This document shows, one piece after another, positions 1,669 through 31,930 of a DNA stretch of 32,000 nucleotides (the first letter of the stretch is position 1; each line of letters opens with the position of its first letter). The stretch comes from Candidatus Saccharimonadota bacterium. GTDB lineage: Bacteria > Patescibacteriota > Gracilibacteria > Absconditabacterales > Absconditicoccaceae. The stretch lies in the NCBI GenBank assembly GCA_030429145.1, contig JAUIDC010000001.1:750001-782000 (forward strand). The letters are read 5' to 3'. Below the pieces are notes generated by a model. It saw only the letters and a program-made list of their open reading frames with translations. It had not been told where the DNA came from and made no database searches. Position numbers and translations under genes: made by a program.

Positions 1669-1783
1669 GATATAGATACTTTTCTTTTGTTACGAATTTG
1701 TTTACGAGGAAAGTATACTTTCCCATGCGAGAAAATCAACCAAATCTCTTTTATTGTATAAGTCAACTTCCGAGGAGTTCGTC

Positions 1784-3208: not shown

Positions 3209-4786
3209 ATGGCAACACAGCTAACGAAGAAGATATTGGAAAAGGAGGACGTGAAGGCGCTTCAGCCGAATTTTACGTATGTGAAATATCTGCCACAAGA
3301 GATCTCTGCTAAGGCGGAAACAGTGGTATTTGACGGTGAAAAGAATCGTCTCCAGCTTCTCACGACCAATGCCAATACTCTTGCAGTGAAGTCTATTGTT
3401 GATCAACTTGCTACCAAAGGTTATAAGACAGAACTCTACTATACCGATCCAGATGCATTTCAGATCGCTATCGGTTGGTATGATACCATCGTAAAACAGG
3501 AAAAAACAGAAGCGGAAGAGAGACAACTACAGCAGAATGCTCTCGGTCAGTCTGCAGAAGAGATGCTTCAAAAGCTCTATGCGGAGAAACAGCAGATGGA
3601 CGATGGTAAGTTTCTTGGAGAGATCATCAGATTGACCTATCAGGCTGGTGCATCGGACCTTCATTTTCAGCCACAGCAAGACAAAGTGCTTATGCGTATG
3701 AGAAAGGACGGTATTATGAAAAATGTGCTTGAGTTTACACAGGCTGAGTTTAAGAAGTATGCACTGAAGGTGAAATTTATGTCTGGTGCAAAGATGAATA
3801 TCGACTATCTGCCGCAGGATGGACGTTTTGACTTCCCGGTAGATATCAACGGTAAGAAAAAAGAGATCGATGTGCGTGTGAGCTTTATGCCAGGACTCAG
3901 AGGAGAGGGGATAGTGATGAGATTTTTGGATGCAGATCAGGGTATTATGACCTTTACTGACCTTGGATTTGAGTCGCAGACTATTTCATTGATCAAAGAA
4001 CATTTGACGAAAAACTACGGTATGATCCTTATATCGGGTCCTACTGGATCGGGTAAAACGACGACTCTCTACTCGATGCTTCAGTATATGAATGATTCAT
4101 CAAAGAAGATCATCACTCTTGAGCAACCGGTAGAATTTGAAATTGAGGGGATAGAGCAGTCACAGATTAACCCGTTGAAGGGTTATACGTATGAGGAGGG
4201 ATTGAAGTCTGTACTCCGTCATGACCCAGATATTATCTTCGTGTGAGAAATCCGTACGAAAGAAACTGCTGAGATCGCTCTCAATGCGGCTATGACTGGT
4301 CACTTGGTACTTTCTACTATCCATACGAACTCTGCTGTCGAGGCTATCTCAAGACTCATGAATCTTGGTATCAAGCCATATCAACTTGCACCTGCTCTCA
4401 ATCTTGTGATCGGACAGAGACTCGTGAGAAAACTTCATACCTGTGCGACAAAGCGTGAAGCGACCTTGCCAGAGCAGCAAGAGATGAAAGATGTCGTGCA
4501 GACGATCAATCAGATAGATCCTACGCGCAAAGTATCATTTGATGGTAATGTGTGGGCAGCTGTCGGTTGTGATACGGACAGTCATGATGGATATCAGTGA
4601 CGTTTGGCCGTTACTGAAGCTCTTGATGTGAACAATGATATCAAAGAAATGATATTGAACAATAAGAATACCCTCGATATCTACGCTGAACTTCGTAGTA
4701 AAGGCTTCCTAACTATGAAAGAGGATGCATACATGAAGATGCTTGAGGGGAAGACTACCTTAGAAGAAATTAGGAGAGTGTTGTAA
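3209..4786 (+). CDS. pilB: Type IV pilus / type II secretion assembly ATPase (PilB/GspE family)
   Basis: Three same-frame track ORFs are joined across TGA at 4244..4246 (DPDIIFV[G]EIR) and 4598..4600 (GYQ[G]RLAVTE). The protein has Walker [22 protein letters not shown] and an N-terminal T2SSE_N-like region. Length 525 aa. Confidence 0.9.
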
Positions 4787-4814: not shown

Positions 4815-5867
4815 ATGACATATTTCAAATTTAAGGATAGAGTAGAGGACTTTATCGTAGAAGAGATGCTTGGAAAAGAGCCAGAATGAGAGTGAGATTT
4901 TCATTATATTTTTTTTGAAAAGAAGAATTTAGCGACATTTGATATTATCAATAAGATACAGTGGGAGTTTAGGTTAAATAGAAATATGATAGGTTTTGCT
5001 GGTTTGAAAGATAAGCAAGCGATTACTCGTCAGTGGATAACGCTCAGCAAGCGTGATGTACATAAGTACTGTGGTGGAATTAACAATCTTCTCGCTTTTA
5101 TGAGAAAACAGGTAAAGGTACTAAAGGCTACTTATGGTAAGAAACCGCTCAAATTAGGTAATAACAAAGGAAATAGATTTGAGATCATACTTCGTGCGGT
5201 CAAAGCTAATGAGATAGAGAAAAGAAAATCAATGATTGAGAATATTCTTTCGGATATTAGCAAAAAAGGTGTTCCCAATTACTTTGGTGAACAACGCTTT
5301 GGTCATAGAGGGAGAAACTGGCAAACAGGTGAAAAACTTGTGCTTGGAGAGATTAAATCACTCAGATGAGATAACAATACAATGGCTGAAAAGCGCTTTA
5401 AAGTACAGGCATTCTCAAGTTATGTATTCAATGTCTACCTTGATATGAGACAAAAAGCTGGTAAGCTATATTCTATACTTCCAGGTGATATTGTAGTACC
5501 AGAAGATGGTCGTTACAAGCATCGAACGGGAAAAGAACAAGAAAATACCGATAGATTGGCTGTGACGGGTCCTGTCGTTTGATATGACTTAAAACATGCG
5601 AAAGAGGAGGCGCTTATGCTTGAAAAAGCGACTTATCAAAAGCTTTCTCTGCCTGCTGATATTGAAAAGGGCTTCCAAAAATTCAATATTTATGGTATCC
5701 GTCGTGCTATATTGTTATATCCTGAACATCTTTCTCGATCACGACAACAGTGAAACAATCTTTCATTACAGTTTGATTTAACATCAGGTGGTTATGCATC
5801 GGTGGTTATTGACTACTTGGAGAATCAACTTACTCAGAAGAGAGGAGAGGGTGCTAATAAAAAATAA
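4815..5867 (+). CDS. truD: tRNA pseudouridine(13) synthase TruD
   Basis: Joined frame from ATG 4815 to TAA 5865..5867. Motifs are EPE[G]E[G]DFHY (the GxGxH region), GFAGLKDKQAITRQW and NYFGEQRFG. There are 5 in-frame TGA. Track ORF 5596..5781 is out of frame. Confidence 0.85.
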
Positions 5868-10277: not shown

Positions 10278-10317
10278 GATATGTCTATTATGTATAAAGC
10301 AATGTTTATAGGTAGAA

Positions 10318-11289
10318 TCATACTTTTTGGAAGACTTCATCTACCTTCTTTTGCGCAATAACTGCTGCTTTTGGTGTCGACTTTTTCAATATACTGCTAA
10401 TGTCCTCATCAGTCAACTCGTTATATCTCTCTTGGATTGGTTTGAGAAATGCTACTATCCTTTCGTGTAGTTCCTCTTTGAGTGATCCATATCCACGTCC
10501 TCCATTTTCAAAATCAGCTCTTATCTTTTTGTCTTCTTCCTCATTGAGAAAGAGTTTCATGATCTGATAGAGTTGAGATTCATCGGGATTCTTTGGATCA
10601 TCGATCCCCTTCTCGTCTGTTGGGATCACTTTTACCTTTTTGAGTACTGTCTTTTCATCGTCCATAAGACCAATGTAGTTATTATATGATTTAGACATTT
10701 TGCGTCAGTCAATACCTGGTACGACTGCGACAGTCTCCTCTATCTTTGGCTCTGGTAGTTTAAATGTCTCACCAAATGTCTTGTTGAACTTCTCTGCTAT
10801 GTCACGTGCGTATTCCACATGCTGTTTCTGGTCTTTTCCGACGGGCACGACATCAGCATCATACAGCAATATGTCTGCAGCCATCAGGATAGGATAGGTG
10901 AAGACACCGACAGATATTTCACCTGCTTTTCCCTTGTTGATAGAGTCTTTATATGCATGCATGCGTTCAGCGGTTCCCATGTTAGTCAAACACTGCAATA
11001 CCCATGTGAGCTGTGCATGTGCAGGGATCATAGCCTGATTATAAATGAGTGTTTTTTCAGGATCTAGTCCACATGCAATGTACAGTTTTAGTGCATTGAT
11101 GCTGTATTGTCTTACCTTGTCTGCATCGTGGAGTGCTGTCAAAGAGTGCATATTTGCGAGAAAGAGAAACACATCATACTCTCCGGAGTTTTGATACTGT
11201 ATCATTTGTGGTATTTGCATCCCGAAATAGTTTCCGATATGCATGTGTTCACCTGTTGGTTTCAATCCTGTCAATAATCTTTTTGTCAT
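10318..11289 (-). CDS. trpS: Tryptophan--tRNA ligase
   Basis: Track ORFs 10705..11289 and 10318..10698 are joined by TGA 10705..10707, giving VPGID[G]RKMSKSYNN (KMSKS). The HIGH-type motif GEHMHIGNY is present. Length 323 aa. Confidence 0.9.
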
Positions 11290-12369: not shown

Positions 12370-12957
12370 ATGACACAAGTTGAGAAAAAAGAGCGAGAGA
12401 GGTTCGTAGAGGTCTTTCTGGCTAAGAATAAAGAGCTGAATTTGTCTGCCATTCGTGACGCAGATGGGGTTTTTGTGAAACATGTAAAAGATGCTTTAGA
12501 GCTCAATAAGATACGGACATTTGAAAGCTGACAAGAAGTTATTGATGTCGGTACGGGTGGATGAATTCCCTTGCTCCCTCTAGCTATGAGTAACCCAGAA
12601 GTCCACTTTGTCGGATTGGATAGTGTGAAAAAGAAGACGATAGCAATCATGGACATGGCCGAGAACTTGTGAATAAAAAATGTCGAAGTTGTATGGTCTC
12701 GTGCTGAACAACATAAGGTAAAATACGACGTTTTGACAGCCCGTGCTATGGCCTATATAGACAATCTGATGACTCGGTGCTACCAGCTCGTGAAAAAATG
12801 AGGCTATTTTATCCTCTATAAGATGCGATCAGAGGAAGAAGAAATGGCTATCGATGCTGTATGTAATAGGTATAAACTAGCGCTCGAGAAGCAACATATG
12901 TATAAACTGTCAGATGATGACATCCAAAGAGTAATCTATATTCTAAAGAAATTATAA
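12370..12957 (+). CDS. rsmG: 16S rRNA (guanine527-N7)-methyltransferase RsmG (GidB)
   Basis: Absent from the track because of 4 in-frame TGA. The hand translation of 195 aa gives NLSAIRD..VKHVKDAL and the SAM motif VIDVGTGG[G]IPLLPLA, with that TGA at 12562..12564. It also gives VLTARAMA. The antisense track ORF 12366..12656 is rejected. Confidence 0.85.
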
Positions 12958-13010: not shown

Positions 13011-14651
<1,641 letters not shown>

Positions 14652-14695
14652 TTAATAACAAATTTATAAAATTAAAAGTCTATAAAGTTACAATA

Positions 14696-14983
14696 TTAAT
14701 GTTCGATTGCTAGAATTGATGAGTGTCTAATGATAAGTAATTTTTTGCCATCAACCTCTATCTCGTCTGGAGAGTATTTTGTAAAATGGACAATGTCATC
14801 TTCTTTGACATCCATAGTTCCTCTTTCGCCGTTATCAAGAATTTTTCCTGCACCAACAGCGACAACTTTCCCTCTTGAAGGCTTTTCTTTACTGTCTGGT
14901 AGGACAATGCCACTGGCTGTCTTCTTCTCCTCTTCGAGAGGCTCGATCAATACGTGATCTTCAATAGGAATAAGCTTTTTCAT
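14696..14983 (-). CDS. groES: Co-chaperonin GroES
   Basis: MKKLIPIEDHVLIEP..GKVVAVGAGK.., 95 aa, located 47 nt upstream of groEL. The longer start in the track adds an implausible Phe/Cys leader. Confidence 0.9.
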   Translation of the reverse strand: MKKLIPIEDHVLIEPLEEEKKTASGIVLPDSKEKPSRGKVVAVGAGKILDNGERGTMDVKEDDIVHFTKYSPDEIEVDGKKLLIIRHSSILAIEH

Positions 14984-15105: not shown

Positions 15106-17343
15106 TTATCCAAATAACCCCTGTTGCTTAGGCATTTCTTTCTTCTTTTTCTCTTTTTGCTCGGCGAAAAGTTTCATGGGCTGTATGTCGTCCGTGAGGA
15201 ATGGATAGCGCGTTTCAAGTTTGTCGAGACCTTCGATAATGATAGTATTTTGTTGTTCTTTTGCTTTGTCGAGTTTACTTGATGGATCATTACCGACTAT
15301 GAGGAAGTCGGTGCTTTGGGTAAGGTTGTCGACAACGATGGCACCATGCTTCGTGAGGATCTCTGCAATAACCTTTCTTGGGATCTCAAAAGTGCCTGTG
15401 ATACAGAAAGATTTGCCAGAGAGCTTCCCTTCTATGTTTTTCCTTCTCAGGTCAAAAATCGAGAAGTTGACACCTGCCTTTACGAGAGCATCAAGCATCT
15501 GTTTGTTGTCCTCGTTGGAGAACCAAACTTCGAGAGAGATGATCGTCTCAGAACCAATTCCTTTTATTGATCTCAAAAACTCATCGTTAGTCAGGAGACG
15601 TTCTAGATCCTCTACTCCGAAGTCTTTTTTCTCGCTGTATCCTTTATTTGCAATAGCTTCTACGATAATCTGAGCCATCTTCTTACCGATATGCTGGATG
15701 CCGAGGCCGTTAATCACTCTTCGAAGTGCACTATTTTTAGATTTTCTGAGTTCGTCAGCGATGAGCTGAAATTTCCTTTGTCCGATAAGAGGCATCGCCA
15801 TCATCTGAATTCTCTTCTGTGGCTCCTCGAGCGTATAGAGATCTGCAACGTTCTTAACGAGCTTTTGATCAACAAGCTGTTCAATGATGCTATCTCCTAT
15901 GCCGTCAATATTCATAGCATCACGAGAGACCCAGTAGGCAATCTTCCCTTTTATCTGTGCTGGACATGTCGCATTTGGACAGTAGATATGAATGTCTGTT
16001 TTACTCCATACTACAGGCGTCTGACAGACTGGACACTTTTCAGGAATAGATATCTCTTGCTCTTTTCCAGTACGTGCATTGATCACAGGTGCTACTACAT
16101 ATGGGATGACTTCACCACTTCTCTGGATCCAGACACTATCGTGAAGCTGGATGTCTTTCTCCTTGATAAATTCTGCATTGTGTAGACTCGCACGAGAGAT
16201 AGTTACTCATCCAAGAAGTACTGGTTCCAAGTTTGCAGTAGGCGTCAATATACCTGTTCTTCCTACCTGCCAGTCGACAGATGCGAGTCTTGTCACAACC
16301 TGTTTCGCAGGAAATTTGTAAGCCATAGCTCGGCGCGGATGGTGGTTTGTCTCGCCAAGAATCTCACGTAATGATAGATTGTTTACTTTGATAACGATTC
16401 CGTCAAAGTCTATCTCTTTTTTATCAAATGTTTCCTTTGTATGTGGATCTGTACAGAGTGAGATAACAGTTTGGATAGTCGAACAGTGCTTTCTCCATGG
16501 AAATACGAGAAATCATTGCTCCTTGAGAAAATCGAGCGTCTCTTCATGTTTCTCCATGCCGTCGGGCCTTCCTTCTAAGACCTGGTAGACATAACATTCC
16601 AGTCATCTTTTTGCTGTAACGCTTGTGTCGAGCTGTCTGAGTGACCCTGATGCTGCATTACGAGGGTTGGCAAAGAGAGCCTCATTATTCTGTTCTCTTT
16701 CCTTATTTACTCTTTCAAATGCCTTTTTTGTCATCACAATCTCTCCTCTCAGGCGCAAAGAAAGTGATCTATCTTTCAAATAAAAAGGCACAGAAAGAAG
16801 TGTCTTCACGTTTTCTGTGATATCCTCTCCTATATACCCATCTCCACGTGTAATGGCTTGCACATATTCACCATTTTTATAGATAAGCTCGATGCTGATA
16901 CCGTCGTATTTTGGTTCGCAAACATATGTGATCTCATGAGAGGTGGGTTCTTGTTCCTTTTGTTTGTTATATAGTCTTTTGATACTTTCATCCCAGGCTG
17001 TGAGGTCGTCCCCGTTGTAGCTGTTTTCTAATGAAAGCAATGGGATGATATGTTCTGCTTGTTGGAAATTTTCTTGGAGCTGATAGGTAAGACGTTGAGT
17101 CGGGCTGTCAGAGCGAATTATATGTGGGAACATCTCTTCAGCAGACTTGAGATAAGCGAAAAGCTCATCGTACTGAGAGTCAGAGATAATTGGTGTAGAA
17201 TCGATATAGTACAATTTATTGTGCTGTCCGAGAATATTGATAAGATCTTGGTAGATATCAGAAAATTGTTTCTCCTGGAGCGATGCCACAGGATGAGACG
17301 ATATAAAATTGAGATATTTTTCGGTTTCTTGTGAGAGTTCCAT
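15106..17343 (-). CDS. ligA: NAD-dependent DNA ligase LigA
   Basis: Track ORFs 16603..17379 and 15106..16086 share a frame. The gap translates continuously with 3 TGA (TAKR[G]L, KEQ[G]F, PVLLG[G]V). Motifs are CEPKYDG (adenylation Lys), [22 protein letters not shown], the Zn finger CPVCQ..CPNATCP and a BRCT-like C-terminus. The likely start is MELSQ at 17343. Confidence 0.9.
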
Positions 17344-17411: not shown

Positions 17412-19340
17412 TTAGTCATCTAGATAGCTGAAGTCATCATCGTCTTCAAAGAATCCACTTGCTTCCTCATCATCTGATATTTTTGGAAGCTTGATCTTTC
17501 ACTTTTTGAGATTCTTGTTGAAGCGTTCCATCTTTTCGATGTCGTCTTCGATACCAAGGATCTTTTGGAGTCCGATATGTTCCTTAAGTTTCTGAAGAAC
17601 CTTCTGTTCGATCTGTCTCACACGCTCACGTGTTACTTGGAACTCCTCTCCAACCTGTTCAAGCGTGTATTTTGGACCGTCGATACCATATCTCATCTTA
17701 ATGATTTTCGCTTCACGTTCATCAAGCATGCTAAGGATATAGTTGAGGTTTGTTCTGATAGTATCCTTTTCAGCGGCCTGATCAGGTCTCATAGTACTTT
17801 TGTCTTCAATCAAATCACCAAGAGAGTCCTTGCCGTCATCACCTACTTCACTGTCGAGAGAGACATTTCCAAAGATCACCTCTTCAAGTTTCTTAATCTT
17901 CTTGATGTTAAAGTTCAACTTTGTACCGATTTCTTTCGATGTTGGTTCACGTCCAAGTTTCTGGAAGAGTTCTTGGTAGGCTTTGTTATAGCTATTGATC
18001 TCATCGATTAGATGGACAGGGATTCTCACATGTTTCGTCATATCAGCAATAGCCTTTGTGACCGACTGCTTGATCCACCATGTTGCGTAGGTAGAAAACT
18101 TGAAGTCTTTATCTGGGTCGAATTTTTCAATTGCTTTGATCAGTCCGACATTACCCTCTTGAATGAGGTCAGAAAAGCTCAGTCTAGAACCAAAGAATCT
18201 TTTAGCTATGGAAATAACCAATCTTAGATTTGATTCAATAAGCTTCTTCTTTGCGTTTTCATCACCACGTCTGACACGGATAGCGATAGCCTTCTCCTCT
18301 TCAGCGCTAAGCAGTGGGATTTTTGAAATATCGTTGAAGTAGAGTTTGATGTGGTCGTGATACTGTTTATCGTTGATCGTATATTTTTTTTCGTAGAGCT
18401 CTACTTTACCAAGTTTGCTTCCACCCTGTAGCATCTGCTTGTTTTCTGCTTCAAAGACCTCTTCGATAGTAACGATCTTGATGCTCATCTTTTCAGCGAG
18501 CTCATAGAACTTTTCTACCATCTTAATCTTTGCGTCTAGGTCGTCTACTTCTGTCAATATCTCCTCCTCGGTGATATGACCTGACTGCATACCTTTTTTC
18601 AAAAGATTTTGTAGCTCTGGAGTCATATCATTGATATCTTCAGCAAGCTTGTCCCAGATCTGCTGTCTATTTACGGCTTTTCTTACATGATCTTTCTTAG
18701 CGGTGCTCTTGGTATTCTTATCATCTTTGGCGTCCTTTTGCTCATTGCCATTTTTTGCTGACTGAGCAGCTCATAGTCTTGTTAGGGTCTTGAGGTCGTG
18801 CTTTCTTTTCTTTGCAGCTTCAGCTTTTAGCCTCTTCTCCTCCATAAATGAAAGCTCTTTCTTTGCTGCCTTTTTTACAGTCGTTTTTCCACCAGCTTTT
18901 TTGACAACTTTCGATACTTTCTTCGCCACTTTCTTGACGACAGGTTTCTTTTCCGTTGCTTTTTTCGTCTTCACAGCTGCTTTTTTGACACTCTTTTTTG
19001 CCGTAGCTTTTGCTGGTTTGCTCGCTGTTTTTTTCGCTCCTGCAGATCTCGCAGATTTACTGGGCGTCTTCGTCTTCTTCTTCGCTGCGGTTGTTTTCTT
19101 TGCTGTCACTTTCTTTGTAGCTTTTTTTGCAGCTGTTTTCTTGGCAGTACTCTTTTTTGCTGGAGTTTTTTTAGCGACGGTTTTCTTTGTCGTCACTTTC
19201 TTTACAGCCTTTTTTGCACTCGACTTCTTCGGTGCTGGCTTTGTAACTGTCTTCTTCTTTGCAGGCGCTGCTACTTTTTTTGTCGTCTTTTTCTTGTCAG
19301 TAGCTTTCTTTACAGCCTTTTTTGCTTTCTTTGCTGGCAT
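17412..19340 (-). CDS. rpoD: RNA polymerase sigma-70 factor RpoD with a fused Lys/Ala-rich histone-H1-like N-terminal domain and a short acidic C-terminal tail
   Basis: Track ORFs 18771..19340 (189 aa of AKK/KKA repeats) and 17499..18626 (sigma regions 1.2-4, e.g. RLVISIAKRF, YATWWIKQ, TLEQVGEEFQVTRERVRQIE) share a frame. TGA 18771..18773 and 48 open codons connect them. TGA 17499..17501 is read through to TAA 17412..17414. An in-frame TAG lies 3 codons upstream of ATG 19340. Total 642 aa. Confidence 0.8.
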
Positions 19341-19370: not shown

Positions 19371-21839
19371 CTATCTTAATGTTGCACCATGTTTTTCTCC
19401 TGTCTTTATCACCTGTTGGATGATCTCATTTATCTGTTCGGTGGTCATCGATCCGTCACCAGTGATGCTAAAGGTGAATGCTATCGACTTCTTTCCTTCA
19501 GGAAGTTTATCTCATGCATAGATATCAAATACTTCTATATCACCAATCGTATCCATCGCTTTTATTGCATCCATCACACTATCTCGACTCTTGTCTTTAT
19601 CGATAACGAAGCAGACATCTCTATATACTATCTGGTCCTGTAGTGTCTTATAACTCTTTGTGTATGCCTGTTCACCTTCCATATATGAGACTAATGTGTC
19701 CATATCAAGCGACGCATAGCTCACCTGGGCTGTTTCATTGATCTTATAGTTTTGTTGCACAAGCGGATGCACAGTTGCTATGTAACCAATAGCTTCTCCG
19801 TCTGCGAGGATGGTTGCTTGTTTCTTCGGATGAAAGTACTCTTTGTCTGTAGCAGAGAAGCTGATCTGTTTGACTCATAGCTTGTGCAGCAGTGTTTGCA
19901 CATGAGCTTTGAGTTCTAAGATAGTATCTTGTTGTCGGCCGGATATGCTCTTTCTATAGAGAGCCATGCCAAGAGCTTTACGCTCTGTCAGCTTACCTTT
20001 GTCTTCCGGCCATATCTTTCCTGTATCAAATACTCTTATCTCATCAAATGTTCTGTGATTCTTCTCAACAATATCCATCAATCCATATATCATATCAGGT
20101 CTGAGCTTGCTTGTCTCAGGACTAGATGGGTTGAGCAACGTATAGTGGGTGTTCTTATCATGACCAAAGTATGCATAATGACTTTCCTCTGCCCATGGAT
20201 ATGTTTCTCCTTGTTCCATACGAGCCTCATGAATGAGGTAGTCTTCCACTGCTCTCTGTAATTTTACTTCAGGCGTAAATGGTACGTATGCACTTTCTCC
20301 TTGTAGAGGTTGTGGTTCTATATTGTCATATCCGTGAATTCTTGCGACTTCCTCATAGATATCCTCTGGTATATTCATGTCGTCTGGAGAACGTCGAAGA
20401 GGTATGGTGACAGTATTTTCACTGTATGCAAAACCAAGGTTTTCTAATATCTTTGTGGCAGAATCGTCAAATGCATGCGTATTGTTGCCAAAGATAATGC
20501 TAGCTCCTTTCGCAGCATCTATCTCAACTGTTTTCTTCTGACTGAGCGATGATTTCAATGTATCAGCTATGTGATAGCTAATGCCATGGACAGCATTGTT
20601 GCCAAGATCCGTCGCATAAAATTTGCTTTCTTCCAAGAAAAACAGGAGCGAATAGAGAGAGAAAAGCGGATTGATATGCTTCTCATATCTGAGTTCTGCA
20701 TCAGTTCTGAGTCCTAGTCTTGTACCCGTTTTTCTCACTGCGACTGGGTCAAAGTGAGCAATCTCTACAACGATGTTTGTTGTCTTTTCGGTTACCCCAC
20801 TTGTCTTACCCCCGACGACACCTGCAAGTGCAAGCACTTTTTCATCGTCAGCGATCACGATATCTTCAGCGATAAGCTCATGTTCTTTATCGAACAGATC
20901 GATGAACTTCTCTCACTTCTTTGCTTGTCTCACAGTAATTCCTCCTTTGATCATATCGGCATCAAAGAAATGGACAGGATGTCCTGTTGTCATCATAAAT
21001 AGATTTGAGAAGTCTACCCAGTTGTTCCTACTCTGTTGGCCGATATCCTGTATAGCTAGTCTCGTGTAGAGGGTTGATCTTTGTACGTTGACGTCTTTGT
21101 ATTCCACTGCAATATAGCTTTGACAGTTTTCAGTCTCTACGTTGACACTCATAGATGATTTGGTAGCGTTTTCGAGGGTGTCGAGGATGTTTGTTGTTTC
21201 GAATGTGTGCTTCCATTCAGGAAGTTTGTTAAATGAAAATTTGTGGTTTTCCATAGCATAGATCGCTTGTAGTTCCCATGCGATACCAAAATGTCCCGTC
21301 AAGTCAGGTCTGTGTGTGACGGTTTTATTGTCTACATCGAGTATAGCATTGTTCATCCATGGATATTTCTCTCCGAGTGGCATACCAATATCGGTATCAC
21401 TGAGGTCAGAAAGGTCCTCGTCCATGATCCAAATCCAGTGTTTGTCTTCATCTTCGTTGATACCGATCTCTCCTTTTGAGCAGATCATTCCGTTTGAGTC
21501 CTCGCCTCTCATCTTTCTTGGCTCGATCTTGAGGTCGATAGCAGGAAGATAGCAACCAGGGATAGCTACTGCTACAAAGACATTTGCAATGATGTTTTCA
21601 CCTCCTGTACAGATCTGAAATTTGCCTGCTTTTCCGCAGTCTATCTGGCACACTTTGAGCTTATCTGCATTGGGATGGTCTTTTACATCAAGCACCTTAC
21701 CGATGAGTATATCATCAGGTAGCTTTCTTTCAATGATCTCCTCTATTTCACATGTTTTCAGTGTCAGTTGACGAGCGATGTTCTCAGCTGTGTCCTGTAC
21801 ACCGATATACTTCTTGAGCAAACTTAGCGAATAACGCAT
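19371..21839 (-). CDS. pheT: Phenylalanine--tRNA ligase beta subunit
   Basis: Three same-frame track ORFs are joined by TGA at 20913, 19875 and 19512. The N-terminal tRNA-binding domain is KVCQIDCG. The C-terminal FDX-ACB domain is ..FDIYA[G]DKLPEGKKSIAFTF..GATLR, ending at TAG 19371..19373. Length 822 aa. No pheS lies adjacent. Confidence 0.9.
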
Positions 21840-22606: not shown

Positions 22607-24079
22607 TTACTCGTTCAACAATCTTCCCAAATCTACCTCCTCTATCTCATCCAGTTTGCTTACCCATGCATCGTCATGGCTAACCATAATGACAGCACCT
22701 TTGTAGTTGTTGATGGCTTCTGCGATGACAGGAAGGTGGCGGAAATTGATATGATTTGTTGGTTCATCGAGGATAAGAAGATGTGGTTTTTGGATAGCAA
22801 ATCTTGCGTAACAAAGTAGTCCTTTTTGGCCTTCAGAAAGTGATTCGATAGGTTGTTTGAGGAGATCTCCCGTAAGGAGGAACTGGGCAGCGGTTTTGTA
22901 GACCTCTTGGTCGGTCACTTCATTTGACATCTCGTGTAGTGCATCCCATACGGTCATTTGCATATCAAGTGCATTGAAATCTTGGCTATAGTAGCCAATT
23001 CTCACTTCATCATGAATGGTTGCGTCACCACTATGTGCATTGATCAATCTTTTCAAAAGTGTTGATTTCCCGATCCCATTTGGACCCATAAGCTGGTATC
23101 TCATCCCCTTTTTAAGCTCTAGTTCGAGCTTTTTAGAGACGCGTTCATGCTCTTTGTTCATGAGCTCAACGCTATGGATGGTCACGATAGGCCCAATATA
23201 ATTTTCAAACTCTATCGTAAATGGCGTAATCGTCTTATCATCCCTTCTTACTTCTACCTTGTTCTCCTCTGCTTCAGCTACTTCATCTCTCATCTTACTA
23301 GCAAGTTTACGCATTTTACCTCCTTTCTGAGCAAAGAAGTTGATCTTTTCTTTAGCGTCGACGATTTTCTTTTCCATACGTGCATTGAGGGATTTTGCTT
23401 TCTCCAGCTGATGAGCAATCTCTTCTACTACATTATAGTAGTCCCCTCGGTATTGCTCTACCTGGTGAGACTGGACATTGAGATATAAGACGCCATCGGT
23501 AAACATATTGAGAAAGTCTGCATCATGGCTAATCACCACGACAGTTTTATCATACCCAAGCAGAAATCCGATCAGGTGATTGATACCATCGGTATCGAGG
23601 TTGTTTGTCGGCTCATCGAGCAAAAGAATATCTGGCTTTTGAATCAACGCATAAGCGAGCAGAATGCGAGCCTGCTGTCCTCCTGAGAGTTCTTTGAGCT
23701 CCTTATCGAGAGGCATATTGAAATTGACTGCTTCAAACGCTTCAGCAATCTTTTTGTCGAGCTGATAGTCTTTTTCTGCAAAAGCTGTCGCAAAGTACTC
23801 TCTAATAGTCATATGCATCATATCTCTTGGTATTACCTGCTTAGCGATAGCAATACTTTTCCCCTGACCGATATTGATCTTTCCTGACTGTGGCTTTAAC
23901 TCCCCAGTAATCATTTTAAAAATAGTAGACTTCCCTGCTCCATTTTGTCCCATGATCGTAATCTTCGTGTTTTCACGTAACGAAAAATTAGCCTCAACAA
24001 GAATGGGCTTCTTCCCATCATTATAAGCAAAAGATACTGTATCAAAGCTTAGGATAACTGGATTCTGACTGTTCGACAT
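22607..24079 (-). CDS. ABC-F family ATPase with two ABC domains and no TM domain
   Basis: Two Walker A motifs (GQNGAGKST, GPNGIGKST), two signature motifs (LSGGQQ, LSEGQK) and two Walker B motifs (LLLDEPTN, LILDEPTN). Length 490 aa, TAA stop, no in-frame TGA. Confidence 0.85.
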   Translation of the reverse strand: MSNSQNPVILSFDTVSFAYNDGKKPILVEANFSLRENTKITIMGQNGAGKSTIFKMITGELKPQSGKINIGQGKSIAIAKQVIPRDMMHMTIREYFATAFAEKDYQLDKKIAEAFEAVNFNMPLDKELKELSGGQQARILLAYALIQKPDILLLDEPTNNLDTDGINHLIGFLLGYDKTVVVISHDADFLNMFTDGVLYLNVQSHQVEQYRGDYYNVVEEIAHQLEKAKSLNARMEKKIVDAKEKINFFAQKGGKMRKLASKMRDEVAEAEENKVEVRRDDKTITPFTIEFENYIGPIVTIHSVELMNKEHERVSKKLELELKKGMRYQLMGPNGIGKSTLLKRLINAHSGDATIHDEVRIGYYSQDFNALDMQMTVWDALHEMSNEVTDQEVYKTAAQFLLTGDLLKQPIESLSEGQKGLLCYARFAIQKPHLLILDEPTNHINFRHLPVIAEAINNYKGAVIMVSHDDAWVSKLDEIEEVDLGRLLNE

Positions 24080-24274
24080 AACAAAAAAAGAAAAAATATA
24101 ATAACATCTAACCCGCGAAAGGATAGTTATTTACGTTATTTTTTCAATGAGAAGCTAGGGTTGTTCACCTATGGCTTTTTGATTTACTCCTAGCCCGCCT
24201 TCCCATAAGACCAAGAAGTTAGTGAAAGAGATGGCCGAGATGATTGGAACTGGCTGGGAGGGTGAGAATAATTT

Positions 24275-25366
24275 TTATATGTCAATTTCAAACTCTTCTT
24301 TCCTAACTTCTTGGAGATCTATTTCTGACATTATTTCTTCTTTTAATAGGGCTGATTCTTCGGGATTATAGATGTCTAAGAATCTTATAAGTTTATCTAC
24401 TTCTAAATTTTTATAGTGTGGTCTAACCAGATTAATTAATGTTTCGGGTACCCAATCACTATAGTCTTTTATCCAAATGATTTGGGAATTACTTATTGCA
24501 GCATCGACAATTCTATTTACTTGATCTATAGAAAATTCACCATACTTCTCTAGTTTTATTAATGTCTTCCTTGTTCTTGCGAATGAATAACTTTCTTCTA
24601 AGTCTTGAATGTGCTTTTCTTTGAAATATTCTTCATTTAATGTTATGTCTGGGAACGTCCCAGCAAAAAAATCATTGAGTGCGTTGTAAAAAACAATTTT
24701 TCCTTTTTTAGGTAAGAAAGAGTATGATTCGCTTTCTTTCTCTAAAAAGTTCATGAGCTTTTTTTCATCTAAAGGGCAGGAGAAGTCTCCATCAATTGAA
24801 ACTAAATGTATGTTAGAATCTGTATCATTTTTGGCATATTCAAGTAGTGATTCCCAAATTATGGCATCTCAATATGAATTGTTTTTGCCTGGTGGATTAC
24901 CTAGATCAAATCTTTTTTTTGCTTTTTCTCGCAACTCTTCAGTTAATGGTATTTGTGTTGCTTTAGAGAATATCTTTTTGAGCAATATATCTGCTTTCAA
25001 CTTTTCCTGGGCGGCATCAGTGGAGACTTTTTCTATTAATTGATTTTTTAGGTGAGAGAATTCTCTAAATGTCTCATGTAACATTGCTTTTTCCTCATAA
25101 GAATCTGAAATTCTGGGTAATTTAAGATCTATATGCTGTTCTTTTAGTTTTTTTATAGCATCTTTGATTTTATTTTCTCTGTTTCTATAAAACTCATTAA
25201 TTATTTGTTCTGGTAAGAGAATGGTTAATTGATCAGTGTCAATTAATCAAAGTATATTTTCTAGTTTTTCTAAATCATTATCGCTAAAATGATAAAAACT
25301 TAAGTATACATTAGTGTCAATGCATAAGACTACTTTAGTATTTTTTTCTTCAGTTTTTTTGCTCAT
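24275..25366 (-). CDS. PIN-like domain protein (DUF4935-type) with an uncharacterised C-terminal half
   Basis: Track ORFs 24869..25084 and 24275..24754 share a frame with ATG 25366. The codon count between anchors was checked. There are 2 TGA (ENIL[G]LID, NNSY[G]DAIIW). Motifs are VVLCIDTNVY, GNPPGK..SY[G]DAIIWESLL and IHLVSIDGDF. Length 363 aa. The locus is more AT-rich than its flanks. Confidence 0.55.
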
Positions 25367-25383
25367 TGCCTTGATTCTTTTAT

Positions 25384-25407
25384 AAAAACCCCACATCTTT
25401 GCGGGGT
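25384..25407 (-). terminator. Intrinsic terminator after trxA
   Basis: The minus strand reads accccgcaaagatgtggggt followed by TTTTTA. Confidence 0.55.
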
Positions 25408-25420
25408 CAAATAGTTGTAT

Positions 25421-25822
25421 TTAGGCAGCCATAGGCATATCTGTATCTGTGTTCTCTGACTCAGGCATTTCAACTGTCTTTGATTCAGTCGCGTTTATGT
25501 CTGCGGTATGTTGCTGAATGATTTCTTCTACTCTAACCGGTGGTACTACTCCAGTGAAGTCATCAACTTTTTCTCCATTTTTGAAGAAGATGACTCTTGG
25601 GATGCTGTTTACTTGGTATTGTACAGCTAGCGGATAGTTATCCTGCTCATCTACGTTTACCTTTACGAGTTCTACTTTGTCTGCGTGTTTTTTTGCGAGA
25701 TCCTCGAGTACAGGCTTGAGCATGCGACATGGTCCACACCACTCTGCCCAAAAATCTACCATAACGAGTTTATTTGAAGTAGACGTTAGTTCATTGAATT
25801 TGTCTGCACCTGTGATATCCAT
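25421..25822 (-). CDS. trxA: Thioredoxin with an acidic C-terminal extension of about 25 aa
   Basis: WCGPC active site. The likely start is MDITGADKF at 25822. TAA stop. Confidence 0.85.
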   Translation of the reverse strand: MDITGADKFNELTSTSNKLVMVDFWAEWCGPCRMLKPVLEDLAKKHADKVELVKVNVDEQDNYPLAVQYQVNSIPRVIFFKNGEKVDDFTGVVPPVRVEEIIQQHTADINATESKTVEMPESENTDTDMPMAA

Positions 25823-25853
25823 GGTTATTGTGATTATTGCTAAATTGCTATGA

Positions 25854-26075
25854 TTAGTATGCTTCAGCAACTGCGCCGTAGCAGACATTTTTGACGATGT
25901 TTTTGAGAGCTTGCATGACAGTGTAGCTGAACTCTACGTAGCCTCTGACTGCTACTACTTCGAACTCTTCGAGATCATTTCGTCCTGGCTTCATGCTGAT
26001 AAGAAACTTATGTGAGTTTATTTCTAGTACGACATCATATTTCCCTTCATCTTTCTCTTCAAAGATAGCTTTCAT
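25854..26075 (-). CDS. Hypothetical small protein, 73 aa
   Basis: Start at MKAIFEEKDEG, preceded by aaggaaacaac. TAA stop. It lies 31 nt upstream of trxA. Confidence 0.45.
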   Translation of the reverse strand: MKAIFEEKDEGKYDVVLEINSHKFLISMKPGRNDLEEFEVVAVRGYVEFSYTVMQALKNIVKNVCYGAVAEAY

Positions 26076-27191: not shown

Positions 27192-27620
27192 TTAATAGAA
27201 TTGTAGAGGGATAATTGCTTGAGAAGTGCGAATACGTTGAGGGTGTAATCGCTCTTGTTTCCAAGGGATTTCTCTTGCGTTAATAATCACGCAGTGTATG
27301 TCCCAGAGCTTTTTCCCCTGTTTGTTGATCAAATAGTCTAAGTGGTCTTTTTGTGCATCGGATAAGAATACATACAGTGTGTCCGTAGAACACACAGAGT
27401 CGCAATCTCGTAGTTGGTAGGTCTTGAGTACAAGTGGATTTTCGATGGTTTTCGAAATAATAAACGGGAATATCTTTGTCGAATCCGTAATATCTCCTTG
27501 TAGCTCTACCATCTCTATGGGCTTGCCTCCTCGTCCTGTGGGTTGGCAACTGCTCATAGCAAGCATGCTGCATAGTAGTATCACTATGGCACACAATAGC
27601 ATGATTCGTCTTTTTTGCAT
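27192..27620 (-). CDS. Putative lipoprotein, 142 aa
   Basis: Signal peptide MQKRRIMLLCAIVILLCSMLAMSSC with a lipobox-like MSSC. TAA stop. Confidence 0.55.
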   Translation of the reverse strand: MQKRRIMLLCAIVILLCSMLAMSSCQPTGRGGKPIEMVELQGDITDSTKIFPFIISKTIENPLVLKTYQLRDCDSVCSTDTLYVFLSDAQKDHLDYLINKQGKKLWDIHCVIINAREIPWKQERLHPQRIRTSQAIIPLQFY

Positions 27621-27967: not shown

Positions 27968-28359
27968 TTAGTGAAAAGTAATAGGATATTGAGTAGTAAT
28001 ACCTACCCAGTGTGGCCTTGCAGGATCTATTGTACCTTGTTTTGTACGAGATTTGAAGGCACATACTATTTCTCGGTTGAGTTGGTAGTTATTCTTTTGT
28101 AGGAGGTTGAGTAGCCTTGCTGCACCGGTTTCATCAAGCTTTATAATGGCTGTGTCTGTCTCCGCCTCTTCTGGCCGGAGGGCGCGAGTTTGAATAAGTG
28201 CATAGGCAATGCCACAGCCAAACTCTTGTTGATCAGAGTGACAGGAGTCTAATCCTATGAACACGCCGTTTATTTTTTCGTTATTAACGGATACGTGTTT
28301 TTGACTGTCGTCATTGCAGCTACTACAAGCAATGTACAAAAGAGTGATAATACTTGTTA
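27968..28359 (-). pseudogene. 3' portion of a lipoprotein gene interrupted by the transposon insertion
   Basis: The frame is open from the transposon junction (..LTSIITLLYIACSSCNDD..) but has no plausible start codon. The missing ATG AGA TAC T lies on the far side of the element at 31931..31940. Confidence 0.75.
28352..28359 (+). repeat. Target-site duplication, left copy (ACTTGTTA)
   Basis: Identical 8-mer directly abutting the outer end of each terminal inverted repeat. The other copy is at 31923..31930. Confidence 0.8.
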
Positions 28360-28386
28360 GATAAATCTCCCTTAAAGAAAGTATAA
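28360..28386 (+). repeat. Left terminal inverted repeat (GATAAATCTCCCTTAAAGAAAGTATAA)
   Basis: Its reverse complement matches 31896..31922 at 25 of 27 positions. The outermost 17 nt are perfect. Confidence 0.8.
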
Positions 28387-28406
28387 ATTGGAAGTATATA
28401 TTGCGA

Positions 28407-28892
28407 CTATATATTAAATTTCTTTAAAACCTTATCAAACTCTTCAGAGTTATCTTGAGTACAAATCTGAGACAAGTAATCTGTAGTTTGCTTTCTGGCA
28501 ATATTATTTTTGATAATGAAATTATGTAGCTCTATATATTTTTGATGAATCAGTTTTCCTACACAAATGCACTGTCCTGTAGATTCTAATGTATGCAATT
28601 CATCGAGTTCCATATGGTCTCGTGGATGATTATTTCATGAAAAATAAATATAATTATCTTGAAACACTACTAGGGCATTATCAATATCACTCGGCGATAT
28701 AAGAAAAAAATTCTTATGATAACCTTTTCATGTGGTTGGCACTAAAAAACTCACATAAATTCTATGAGATATAGATGATTCTTCAAAAATTTTATATACT
28801 ATCTTATACTTATCTTTAAATCTATCTGTTCACGCTTCTTGTGAATTATGATGTCTGAAAATTTCTTTAATTTTTATTTCACGTTTTGGCAT
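28407..28892 (-). CDS. Unknown 161-aa protein; candidate toxin partner of the Panacea-domain gene
   Basis: ATG 28892 lies 2 nt after the TAA of the upstream gene (..GAA TAA AC ATG..). There are 3 in-frame TGA. Track ORF 28407..28613 is its C-terminal third. No family recognised. Confidence 0.55.
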
Positions 28893-28894
28893 GT

Positions 28895-29440
28895 TTATTC
28901 TGCATCAAAATTTAATTCTTCTCTGAAGTGTTCAGTTCAACCCAAAGTTGCTTGAAAAGCCTCCATCGGTTTTGTTCCATAAGCAATCTTAGTTAATCCG
29001 GTTCAACGAAATCCAGATAAATTTGTTAAATATTCATCTATAATTTGAATTTCATCATCTGTTAATTCTGTAGGTTTTATTTCTTCACCTTGTTCCGATA
29101 ACTGATAATAAATGATTTCGTCACCAGTTGAACCAGTAATTATATCATGAGATACTATTCCCTCTTGTTCTAAATTCTCTATATCTTCTATTATTTTTCT
29201 ATCATAAGGTCAATAGTAATATCTTATGTACTTATACTCAGATAGTCTCTGCTTATCATTGTTTTTATAGTACATCAATTCTATTAGGTATAAGAGCTTA
29301 ACAATTTCTGTAATATTACACTTTACTCTATTCTTGAGTATATGCATTATAAGCTCTTTAGACTTATTCATTAAGTAATAAGGAAATGATTTAAATCAGT
29401 AATTTGATACATACTTGGCTGTCGTAATGCAATAGAACAT
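28895..29440 (-). CDS. Panacea / SocA-like (DUF4065) antitoxin-domain protein
   Basis: Absent from the track because of 3-4 TGA. The hand translation gives ..ITEIVKLLYLIELMYYKNNDKQRLSEYKYIRYY[G]PYDRKIIEDIENLEQEGIV.., matching the KL.KLLY...Y.YGP core of the family (from memory). An alternative start is ATG 29371. TAA at 28895..28897. Confidence 0.55.
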
Positions 29441-29516
29441 AGCTCTTTTTATTGAAAAATGTATATAATAGTAAAAACTCTATAGCAAAAAATATTTAAT
29501 TATTTATATTAACTAT

Positions 29517-29664
29517 GCCAAGCTTTTATATTTCCCTTTTTCTTTTTCGAAAGAAATCCCATTTCAATTACAAAGAAAGGCGGTATGTAATCTGCTCTTT
29601 TCTTACCGTAATTGGAGGGATTGAGTATAAAAGCTTGGCGGCTGATTGCATGCCGTCTTTTTTT
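29517..29664 (+). promoter_or_regulatory. Structured leader: a 14-bp long-range inverted repeat plus an intrinsic terminator (attenuator or riboswitch-like)
   Basis: GCCAAGCTTTTATA at 29517..29530 pairs with TATAAAAGCTTGGC at 29626..29639. The terminator ggcggc-tgattgcat-gccgtc plus T7 at 29637..29664 shares 3 nt with the right arm. It lies 22 nt upstream of ATG 29686. Confidence 0.4.
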
Positions 29665-29685
29665 ATACTCTATTCCAAATCAATC

Positions 29686-30156
29686 ATGAATGAACTTATT
29701 ATACCACATCGGTTATTGATTACTGTGTTTCTCATTTTAGTCTTGGCAGTTATTTGAATATTAAATCCTCATAGATTTAAATGACTTCGCATAATGAGAA
29801 GAAATACTCAAGATGAACAAAATGAAAGAGAAAAAAATCTGTCTACATCACAATTAAAATGCATTAATAGATTCTCCTGGTGGGCATTTGTTTTTCCATG
29901 AATCTACCTATTACGAGCAAGATGTTATCAGAGCTTTCTGCCATTATTTATTCTAAGTTATATTCCAATTGTGGGATTATTCGTTAGATTTTACATATCA
30001 TTGAATATAGTGAAACGAGCATATATTAACTCAGAAAGAGACTTAGAATGATTCTTAAAGGTAAAGGGTAAGTTTGTACAAGACTTGATATGACGATTAT
30101 TCTTGGTTGTGTTATTCTTTATTATATCTTCGATAGTTAACAATAACCCATATTAA
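29686..30156 (+). CDS. Small membrane protein (DUF2628-like?)
   Basis: MNELIIPHRLLITVFLILVLAVI[G].. with 5 in-frame TGA. The motif FSWWAFVFP[G]IYLL is present. TAA at 30154..30156. The track start at 29515 would place a T7 terminator inside the CDS, so I prefer the later start. Confidence 0.5.
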
Positions 30157-30163
30157 TCTTTCC

Positions 30164-30997
30164 CTATACCTTATTTAGTAATAGCCCAAATAAATTATCT
30201 TCTTTTCTGTTATTATATCTCCAAACAAATTCATCTACATAAGCCTGCATCCATTGTTTGGAGACTCGATGATATATTCATCTAATACCTCTTTTGAGTA
30301 AGCTCCAAAATCACTCAAGAGTATTTGTGTATACATCTCCTACAGCTCGCTCCCATCTGCTATGACAGACAGTATCATGCTGATAGCAAAGGGATAGATT
30401 TCTATATCACCTTCGTTCATCTGAACATATCCTACTATGCTTTTCTACGTTTGCAAAAATAAAGGTTGTAAGGAACTCTTCTGTAGCGCTTTTCCCTATA
30501 GTTGCCTTTATCTTTCCTGTATCGCGATTAAGAATTCAAACAACCATAGTTTTATTTCTTTGCCAACCATTATTCCATCATCATTTAACTCTTCCTCCCA
30601 CATAAGTCTCATCGACTTCGCTAATTCATTTGAACATTGGGAGATCTTCCTTCATGAGTTTACGTATTTGTTGCATCATTCTCCAAGCCGTCTTATAGGT
30701 GACTCTTATCTGTCTCGCTAGTTGATTTGAAGACAATCACTTCTTACTATTTGCTATGAAATACATAGCAAGAAACCATTTATGCAATGGTGTAGAAGAC
30801 CTATAGAAGATGGTTCCACATTTCAATGTTTGCTGATGATTACAGCTGAATTTTCTACACTGATACTTTCTACTGTGAGATAATCTATACATAGTTGTTC
30901 CACATTTTTGACATATTACTTTTGATTTTATTTTTGCAAGATGTTCATAACATTCTTCATCGGTTCTAAATTTCTCGATGAACTCTATTAAATTCAT
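30164..30997 (-). CDS. IS1595-family DDE transposase with an N-terminal zinc ribbon
   Basis: Track ORF 30737..31015 carries the Zn ribbon CQKCG..C..C. It extends through 8 TGA to TAG 30164..30166. Motifs are ISEVDETYVGG, ICSDERR[G]Y, HSRW, YTNTLE[G]FWSLLKRGIR[G]IYH and YVDEFVWRYNNR. Length 277 aa. Confidence 0.85.
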
Positions 30998-31143
30998 TCT
31001 GCAATTATTAAACAATAAAAGTCAATAATTGTAATGCAAAACAATGGCTATAGCAAGCCATTATCATACACGTGTACGTGTATTTTTTAATTTTGTAAAG
31101 ATGCTTTTTTGCATCTATAAGAATAAAAATATATAATGTTAGT

Positions 31144-31488
31144 ATGAAAGAAGTTAGGATAAGAGACCCATTATATGGCATTTCTATTCAGGTATTCAGC
31201 GATATCTCTTTTGCAGATTGGAGAGAATCTTTTTGAATTTGAAAAGGGAAATCCGAAGTAAGTGTTGGGTGATTTACCTGGTATAATAATGAAACTTGAG
31301 GTGCACTCATATGGCTCAATAGAAAAGCATGACCAGAAATATTAATACACGAACTGTGGCATGCAATACATGGGGCATTAAAAGATAGATGATTCACTCC
31401 TAATAGCATTGCTGGGGAAGAGACGTATGCTTATCTTTTTCAATATTTTTATAGAAAGATGACTCAGAAAGGTTTATTTCCCAAATAA
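31144..31488 (+). CDS. Small HExxH-motif protein, 114 aa; putative Zn-metallopeptidase-like (ImmA/IrrE- or SprT-like?)
   Basis: Absent from the track. There are 6 TGA in 114 codons. The motif is LIHELWHAIH followed by GEETYAYLF. TAA at 31486..31488. Confidence 0.5.
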
Positions 31489-31512
31489 AAAAACACCGTT
31501 GTAGACGGTGTT
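31487..31512 (-). terminator. Intrinsic terminator for the minus-strand small gene
   Basis: Stem aacaccgt/acggtgtt with loop tgtag. A T-run follows only on the minus strand. Confidence 0.6.
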
Positions 31513-31541
31513 CAAGATCAATATTAGCAAAAGAAAAGATA

Positions 31542-31688
31542 TTATTTTCTCTTGCGATTGGTGCCTGACTTTTTTTCTCCATCAGAGGTGTAAGGATTAC
31601 TTCTTGCGTGTCCTTTCACCTTGGTACCGTCAGCTTTAGTATAACCAGGTATTCTGTTATACTTTTGACCTTTGTCTGTTTTAGCCAT
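31542..31688 (-). CDS. Small basic protein, 48 aa
   Basis: MAKTDKGQKYNRIPGYTKADGTKVKGHARSNPYTSDGEKKSGTNRKRK. The longer start in the track adds implausible sequence. TAA stop followed by a terminator. Confidence 0.35.
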   Translation of the reverse strand: MAKTDKGQKYNRIPGYTKADGTKVKGHARSNPYTSDGEKKSGTNRKRK

Positions 31689-31895
31689 AAGGTATGTGGT
31701 TAAGAAATAAAAGAGTGTTTTTTTGTGGGTATGTTCTTTGCGAACATGTTGTGTAATCTGCATAATAAGCTTATTGCTGATTACACCCTGACTATATAGA
31801 ACGTACGTTTCTTTTTCAAGAGATTTTCTATATATTGTGTTGCCGAACGTTTTTAGACACAATATATGTGTTGACAAAAAACATATACTTATACC

Positions 31896-31922
31896 TTATA
31901 CTTCTTTTAAGGGAGATTTATC
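31896..31922 (+). repeat. Right terminal inverted repeat (TTATACTTCTTTTAAGGGAGATTTATC)
   Basis: Matches the reverse complement of 28360..28386 at 25 of 27 positions. Confidence 0.8.
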
Positions 31923-31930
31923 ACTTGTTA
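31923..31930 (+). repeat. Target-site duplication, right copy (ACTTGTTA)
   Basis: Identical to 28352..28359. Confidence 0.8.

Follow-up and report, generated by a model that had tools for sequence, protein, structure and literature searches.

Genes and features of the locus

The window, i.e., the whole stretch of DNA that was analysed here (32,000 nt), contains an insertion sequence (IS) of the IS1595 family. Two adjacent genes on the minus strand, termed gene A and gene B, are located between its terminal inverted repeats (IRs), which are flanked by an 8-bp target-site duplication (TSD). The element has the following features:

28352..28359: left TSD ACTTGTTA, 8 bp, identical to 31923-31930 by script check
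28360..28402: left terminal IR, 43 nt, starting with GATAAATCTCCC, 4 nt past the stop of gene B
28407..28892, minus strand: gene B, putative toxin, 161 aa in code 25, with a family HMM match
28895..29440, minus strand: gene A, putative PanA antitoxin, 181 aa in code 25, PF13274
about 28979..29302, minus strand: Panacea domain of gene A (PF13274)
29686..30156, plus strand: ORF for a small DUF2628 membrane protein (PF10947, 23.8 bits, cut-off 23), frame open from 29515
30164..30997, minus strand: IS1595-family DDE transposase, 277 aa in code 25, eight in-frame TGA codons
31491..31513, minus strand: terminator-like hairpin followed by a T-run, inside the element
31542..31763, minus strand: small Lys/Arg-rich ORF (MAKTDKGQKYNRIPGYTKADGTKVKGHARSNPY...), inside the element, no family match, followed by the hairpin
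31880..31922: right terminal IR, 43 nt, 84% complementary to the left arm
31923..31930: right TSD ACTTGTTA, 8 bp

Read along the minus strand, the order is IR, basic ORF with hairpin, transposase, DUF2628 ORF on the opposite strand, panA (gene A), gene B and IR. The junction of A and B reads GAA TAA AC ATG, which agrees with the initial annotation in placing the TAA of A 2 nt before the ATG of B.

TGA is read as glycine

The housekeeping genes of the window (GroEL, LigA, RpoD, PheT, TrpRS, MnmA and others) are unbroken only if TGA is read through. The following genes are intact with TGA as glycine:

1751..2800: MnmA
3209..4786: PilB/GspE
4815..5867: TruD
10306..11289: TrpRS
12370..12957: RsmG
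13011..14983: GroEL/ES
15106..17343: LigA
17412..19340: RpoD
19371..21839: PheT

In these nine genes TGA accounts for 33 of the 290 glycine codons. In-frame TGA falls on invariant glycines (given in brackets) of MnmA (PP-loop, SG[G]VDS), GspE/PilB (V[G]EIR), GroEL (R[G]L) and RsmG (GTGG[G]IP), and also on the glycine of the LigA motif LG[G]VT. Inside the element, TGA codons of gene A are located at invariant glycines of PanA homologues (RYYY[G]PF, ATLG[G]NEH), and four of the eight in-frame TGA codons of the transposase align to glycine in a standard-code homologue. The Pfam SocA_Panacea score of gene A is 39.9 bits with glycine at TGA compared to 31.5 bits with tryptophan. These observations are decisive for glycine, not tryptophan, as the meaning of TGA in the window (code 25). 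The host is a code-25 organism, since TGA occupies conserved glycines in housekeeping genes, PanA and transposase. Organisms with code 25 are Gracilibacteria or Absconditabacteria. No tRNA genes were found within the 32,000 nt of the window.

Gene A has in-frame TGA at codons 15, 77, 146 and 168, gene B at codons 21, 55 and 86. Translation table 11 yields only a fragment of each gene, namely 53 aa for A (29210..29371) and 68 aa for B (28407..28613). It had been stated before that gene A is invisible in the standard code, and this is indeed the case: only with TGA readthrough the 181 aa are obtained. As glycines are encoded by TGA in the transposase as well as in A and B, the entire element must have been resident in code-25 hosts for a long time and is no recent import. 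An IS1595 element with PanA and a putative toxin can therefore be native to an organism with TGA as glycine, and standard-code annotation overlooks all three genes in such a host. A public NCBI-derived protein entry (P0001) is identical to gene A but has tryptophan at all four TGA codons, which suggests that the genes of its source genome were called with code 4. Gene B is missing from the protein collection that holds this entry.

Gene A encodes a Panacea protein

The match of gene A to SocA_Panacea (PF13274) covers profile positions 2-107 of 113 and exceeds the gathering cut-off of 25.7 bits. This profile-HMM check bears out the DUF4065/Panacea (SocA-like) domain that had been proposed from the letters of the sequence. 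All of the 17 database homologues of gene A (30-42% identity) carry PF13274 as well. Because these homologues begin at the equivalent of Met24, the ATG at 29371 (158 aa) is the likelier start of gene A than the one at 29440 (181 aa). The frame 28895..29440 given in the initial annotation was thus correct, but its start at 29440 probably was not. Likewise, the Panacea core motif had been recognized properly and only its spelling needs correction, to YKYIRYYYGPYD with three Y instead of two. By its domain content gene A is a standalone Panacea protein, since it is without an extra N- or C-terminal domain. A hint that DarG may be Panacea-like in its C-terminal portion outside the macrodomain comes from weak matches of gene A to antitoxin models of DarG (PADLOC, E 6e-5; NCBIfam, E 1e-3), which cover DarG residues from about 161 to 252.

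Gene A and the partner family are strictly linked

At six of six loci of PanA homologues, a gene of 165-186 aa without Pfam domains starts -11 to +12 nt downstream. The partners at these six loci are homologous to each other and to gene B. Searching from the partner side in a metagenome scan gave the same picture: in 29 of 29 loci, a gene of the PanA subfamily lies directly upstream on the same strand. Both surveys answer the proposal of the initial annotation to inspect the neighbourhoods of homologues, and the partner family adjoins PanA throughout. Over these 35 independent loci the spacing of the pair is about -11 to +30 nt, so the tight arrangement of two genes that had been likened to toxin-antitoxin (TA) operons is kept in every one.

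Clustering of the flanking ORFs revealed only the PanA and partner families as common to the loci. The flanks differ, and any other flanking gene is shared by no more than three or four contigs, which are close relatives. Neither a conserved third gene nor conserved defence-island neighbours were detected by this clustering. [quoted passage not shown] The A-B locus shows a spacer of 2 nt, 35 like loci and no third conserved gene. The gene B family is always encoded directly downstream of the PanA subfamily of gene A.

Gene B is a divergent member of an unnamed family

Gene B has no match in Pfam and only a chance-level match in NCBIfam. As a query on its own in a word-indexed homology search it found nothing, and the family was discovered only via the neighbourhoods of PanA genes. 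Neither Pfam nor PHROGs gave a match for 14 family relatives. An exhaustive HMMER search, for which the query was an alignment of database members (A2), assigned at least 231 representative clusters to the family at E <= 1e-3 and 190 at E <= 1e-10. The family has been seen so far mainly in metagenomes and Patescibacteria. Named sources are few and are Patescibacteria, namely Ca. Moranbacteria and Ca. Southlakia epibionticum, whose homologue of gene B is WP_376754334.1 (SEML1_0345; P0130).

Gene B was compared to an HMM of 163 family members and scored 33.3 bits over its full length, with an E-value of 2e-12 that refers to a single comparison (Z=1). The best of 2000 shuffled versions of gene B reached 13.4 bits, and typical family members score 80-200 bits. 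Because its full-length score clearly exceeds that of the best shuffle, gene B is classified, on this profile comparison, as a genuine but divergent member of the unnamed PanA-linked family. Family features that are retained in gene B include S..E..T...K.KYK as the N-terminal core, and the F...T strand.

The same PanA-partner pair was also found on a second TGA-recoded contig (L012, 4001..5023; run SRR20005812), with three and four in-frame TGA codons. As this pair is recoded too, the module is present in more than one recoded lineage.

Motifs of PLD/HKD, HEPN (Rx4-6H) and ADP-ribosyltransferase type were also considered in gene B. After inspection by eye they were discarded, as they are backed by no model and the fold predicted for the family is MazF-like.

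Predicted fold of the partner family

For two family members AlphaFold2 models were calculated, P0018 (14 sequences; pLDDT 87.3, pTM 0.84) and the more B-like P0112 (140 sequences; pLDDT 93.8, pTM 0.89). In Foldseek searches against the PDB, the best 50 matches of each model are all of the MazF/EndoA/MoxT/PemK type, with E-values down to 3e-5. The target-normalised TM scores of the two models against MazF-type structures are 0.6-0.73. About 50 extra residues form two or three C-terminal helices in the models. Family members are thus confidently predicted to adopt the SH3-like barrel of MazF/PemK with additional C-terminal helices. For gene B itself, a MazF-like fold is inferred through its link to the family HMM (33.3 bits). 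An unnamed family with a predicted MazF fold and at least 231 clusters is hereby added to the partners of PanA.

At the sequence level the relationship is hidden. At E <= 1, neither gene B nor any of its 14 relatives matched Pfam PemK_toxin. Comparison of the family to an alignment of MazF and Kid by hhalign gave a probability of 0.7% and hence no sequence-level link, and the sole match of the family HMM among PDB sequences was an SH3 domain. By eye, a family-invariant ladder of lysines (K.K.K) on strand 2 is located at the place of the catalytic Arg of MazF, and a conserved Thr closes strand 3 as in MazF and Kid. Both the invariant strand-2 lysines and the strand-3 Thr are retained in gene B, in which the strand-3 stretch reads FLVPTTGKGY, compared to CVPCTTQSKGY in E. 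coli MazF. Judged by eye only, Lys may be catalytically equivalent to Arg25 and Thr54 to Thr48 of B. subtilis MazF.

The pair is carried by an IS1595-family element

The element extends from 28360 to 31922 and comprises 3,563 bp, as its 43-nt IRs, which contain the stretch GATAAATCTCCCTTAAANNAAGTATAA, are flanked by ACTTGTTA on both sides. A target duplication of 8 bp is typical of the IS1595 family. The transposase matches NCBIfam transpos_IS1595 over its full length (186.5 bits, cut-off 75) and Pfam DDE_Tnp_IS1595 with 115 bits; Zn_ribbon_IS1595 reaches 23.6 bits, just under its cut-off of 25.4. With transposase, IRs and TSD in place, the earlier suggestion that the pair travels inside a mobile element holds. 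Only one contig with the transposase fragment of the window was detected, i.e., a single copy of the IS was found. A scan of the genome contigs with a 17-nt IR pattern, which is too short to discriminate, returned only chance-level matches.

Two further elements of this kind were identified. The one on L153 has perfect IRs of 26 nt, the TSD CCGGCAAG and the order transposase, panA, toxin. The Southlakia-type element (L164-167) has IRs of 24 nt, the TSD ACACCTTA and the order transposase, small opposite-strand ORF, panA, toxin. The transposases of L153 and L164-167 are 77% identical, that of L153 and that of the window 38%. A transposase of this type is missing from the vicinity of about 30 other PanA-B loci; therefore, the association of IS1595 and the PanA-toxin pair is recurrent but not obligatory. 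With IRs and TSDs, the three elements are a clean example of an IS that carries its own putative toxin-antitoxin pair. What is modestly novel is that a PanAT pair is built into a transporter IS of the IS1595 family and that this combination recurs in Patescibacteria.

Several genes next to the IS were recorded as well. The ORF 27968..28339 (minus strand), 13 nt upstream of which the IS is inserted, has neither an in-frame TGA nor a family match. The same is true for 27192..27620 (minus strand), also outside the IS, which has a lipoprotein-like signal with Cys. The gene 24275..25396 (minus strand, 373 aa) has an N-terminal PIN_12/PIN_8 domain (80 and 66 bits) ahead of an extended, uncharacterised C-terminal region, and it may likewise be a gene of toxin-like or defence type. 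It is located between a thioredoxin and an ABC-F gene. In the window (22607..25888) as well as in L164-L167 (5670..8110), the IS is closely followed downstream by genes for an ABC-F ATPase and a thioredoxin/glutaredoxin-type protein, which may reflect a common insertion neighbourhood or coincidence.

Interpretation of the locus and alternative readings

We interpret the locus as a PanA-PanT operon resembling type II TA systems, which is a passenger in an IS1595 transporter IS (28360..31922) on the chromosome of a code-25 Patescibacterium (probability about 0.6). The anatomy, i.e., PanA, a partner from a MazF-fold family and their state as IS cargo, is very probable. That this particular A-B copy has an active toxin-antitoxin function has about an even chance or slightly better. 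Against the interpretation speak the four highly conserved family positions missing from gene B, the lack of sequence similarity to MazF/Kid, the Tn-seq data of Ca. Southlakia epibionticum, in which both homologous genes are non-essential, and the single copy of the IS that was detected.

According to this interpretation, A and B would be co-translated from one operon, and PanA would bind and mask the MazF-like protein B directly, as reported for antitoxins that are standalone Panacea proteins. If PanA were lost or degraded, either with the element or upon a trigger such as infection, B would be set free. Free B could then cleave RNA in a sequence-specific manner and thereby arrest translation, as MazF does, and this would lead to a penalty on loss of the element or to abortive infection. 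Within an IS, such a module would favour retention of the element or serve as a triggered defence.

More speculatively, an IS1595 lineage in Patescibacteria might have hard-wired the PanA/MazF-fold module flush against one of its IRs as an integral component, which would serve addiction or retention at the level of the element or would regulate transposition. The copy of the window is entirely rewritten in code 25; on this reading, the element with its transposase and toxin could be expressed only in hosts with TGA as glycine, and the genetic code would confine the mobile element.

A first alternative differs from the preferred reading in the biological role only: the pair may serve in defence by trigger-activated abortive infection and not in addiction, with PanA sensing phage attack and then setting the MazF-like effector free. 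We regard this as possible, though not as the probable case. In Ernits 2023, a sensory role is preferred for Panacea and TA systems are tied to phage defence, and gene A shows a weak match to the candidate-defence model PDC-M19A of PADLOC (E 3e-7). Furthermore, the homologous genes SEML1_0344 (PanA) and SEML1_0345 of Ca. Southlakia epibionticum are non-essential in Tn-seq, and insertions persist over passages (PMC10633639). A dispensable PanA gene fits a toxin that needs activation, and the data are mild evidence against a constitutively lethal toxin in this organism, unless the insertions are polar on the toxin gene. However, the gene B family was not found by tblastn on plasmids and phages or by a scan of viral contigs, and conserved defence-island neighbours are lacking at the PanA-B loci surveyed.

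It is rather doubtful that gene B is a relic, either in decay or with a shifted function, and that A and B are kept only because they hitch-hike with the element, with no toxin activity left. Such a relic would explain the low family score of gene B (33 bits compared to 80-200) and the absence of four of the eight most conserved, near-invariant positions of the family (D20 is replaced by H, N110 by G and F112 by C, and K104 is absent). The TGA-recoded homologue on L012 is similarly divergent, and the Southlakia homologues are non-essential. On the other hand, the ORFs of A and B are intact, full length and translationally coupled, gene B keeps the N-terminal core motif (S..E..T...K.KYK....F...T), and TGA-encoded glycines at conserved glycine positions imply that purifying selection continued after recoding.

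The initial annotation had considered the partner as a possible new toxin family. This view does not hold, as gene B belongs to a conserved family with a predicted MazF/PemK fold, and such partners of PanA are known. A family unrelated to known folds would be in line with the missing matches in Pfam and PHROGs, the chance-level NCBIfam match, the lack of a reproducible PADLOC match, the restriction of PDB sequence matches to an SH3 domain and the negative hhalign result against MazF. Yet the best 50 PDB matches of each of two independent models of high confidence are MazF toxins without exception, and the independent published annotation of SEML1_0345 is PemK/MazF, too (PMC10633639). At the level of the predicted fold, a new family is already contradicted, which leaves it very improbable. 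Since PanA partners of this fold class have been known and validated before, the partner is no new toxin class, and no new mechanism is revealed by the PanA/MazF-like pair.

Even less credible is the divergently transcribed DUF2628 membrane protein (29686..30156) as the real toxin neutralised by PanA. Small membrane proteins are common among PanTs (Kurata 2022; PMC8832971) and the gene adjoins panA inside the element, but it is encoded on the opposite strand outside any operon with A and is missing from all other PanA-B loci, whereas B strictly co-occurs with PanA. Finally, a fragment of a Mokosh MkoB-like defence nuclease, suggested by one weak PADLOC match (E 3.8e-4, residues 5-158 of gene B), was rejected as next to impossible, because none of the 14 relatives reproduces this match or matches any other PADLOC model; moreover, no MkoA helicase is adjacent to gene B and the predicted family fold is MazF-like.

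Comparison with known systems

Among the closest described systems to our preferred reading, a PanA-PanT pair carried by an IS, are the MazF-like PanTs of Pseudomonas moraviensis (T6, WP_083201923.1) and Bifidobacterium ruminantium (T25, WP_026646888.1) (Kurata 2022; PMC8832971). MazF-like PanTs have been validated in that study; they inhibit translation and form complexes with PanA. For standalone Panacea, direct neutralisation was reported, and MazF/PemK is among the recurrent toxin folds (Ernits 2023). In T6, T25 and the A-B pair alike, a standalone Panacea gene comes first and the toxin gene, putative in our case, follows within few nt. The toxins T6 and T25 were described as MazF-like by HHpred only, and T6 is annotated as hypothetical without a CDD hit (PMC8832971). 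T6 and gene B are both cryptic by sequence and MazF/PemK-like by remote or structural comparison, and the two are likened by description only. Like PanAT pairs in general, the A-B pair is a two-gene module that is scattered across phyla and often found near transposases. The B family differs from T6 and T25: relative to MazF, its members have about 50 additional residues, which form C-terminal helices in the models. In the part of the table of Kurata 2022 (PMC8832971) that was covered, the only Saccharibacteria entries belong to cluster T14 and are RelE/HigB-like; thus, they represent a different family from gene B.

With MazF, PemK, Kid and EndoA of the MazEF, PemIK and Kis-Kid systems, the A-B pair shares the predicted SH3-like barrel and the order of antitoxin and toxin. 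By eye, VPTT-GKGY of gene B resembles the (V)P.T[TS] strand of MazF and Kid. In contrast, the antitoxin there is MazE or PemI and here a Panacea protein, and no sequence or profile similarity is detectable. In place of the catalytic Arg of MazF, an invariant lysine ladder (K.K.K) is located by eye on strand 2, and C-terminal helices are added.

Mobile elements with TA pairs have been described before. TA pairs are embedded in Tn3-family transposons (discussion of Kurata 2022, PMC8832971), and like the A-B pair they are modules within a transposable element which they are presumed to stabilise. They differ from the locus of the window in the families of transposon and TA pair and in where the pair is placed, and Tn3 elements are far larger and contain a resolvase. 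Passenger-carrying transporter ISs (tIS) were first described for the IS1595 family (Siguier, Gagnevin & Chandler 2009, as cited in PMC3129680). A tIS and the element of the window have in common a single DDE_Tnp_IS1595 transposase, terminal IRs and passengers inside the IRs that are not involved in transposition. The passenger here differs in being a putative toxin-antitoxin pair flush against one IR, and the whole element is in code 25.

An element of the same kind is found in Ca. Southlakia epibionticum ML1, another Patescibacterium. The homologous genes SEML1_0342-0345 encode an IS1595 transposase, an opposite-strand ORF, a DUF4065 protein and a protein of the B family, and as in the window they are located inside IRs (24 nt) with an 8-bp TSD. 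This element uses the standard code and has a different IR sequence. Its transposase is about 38% identical to that of the window, judged via the 77%-identical relative from L153, and SEML1_0343, at the position of the DUF2628 ORF, is unrelated to it. SEML1_0344 was annotated as DUF4065 and SEML1_0345, by structure, as PemK/MazF (ECOD Kid SH3) in Tables S1-S2 of Wang et al. 2023 (PMC10633639), and the pair is absent from the main-text discussion of that paper. Since the homologue resides in a genetically tractable organism, the function proposed here is directly testable.
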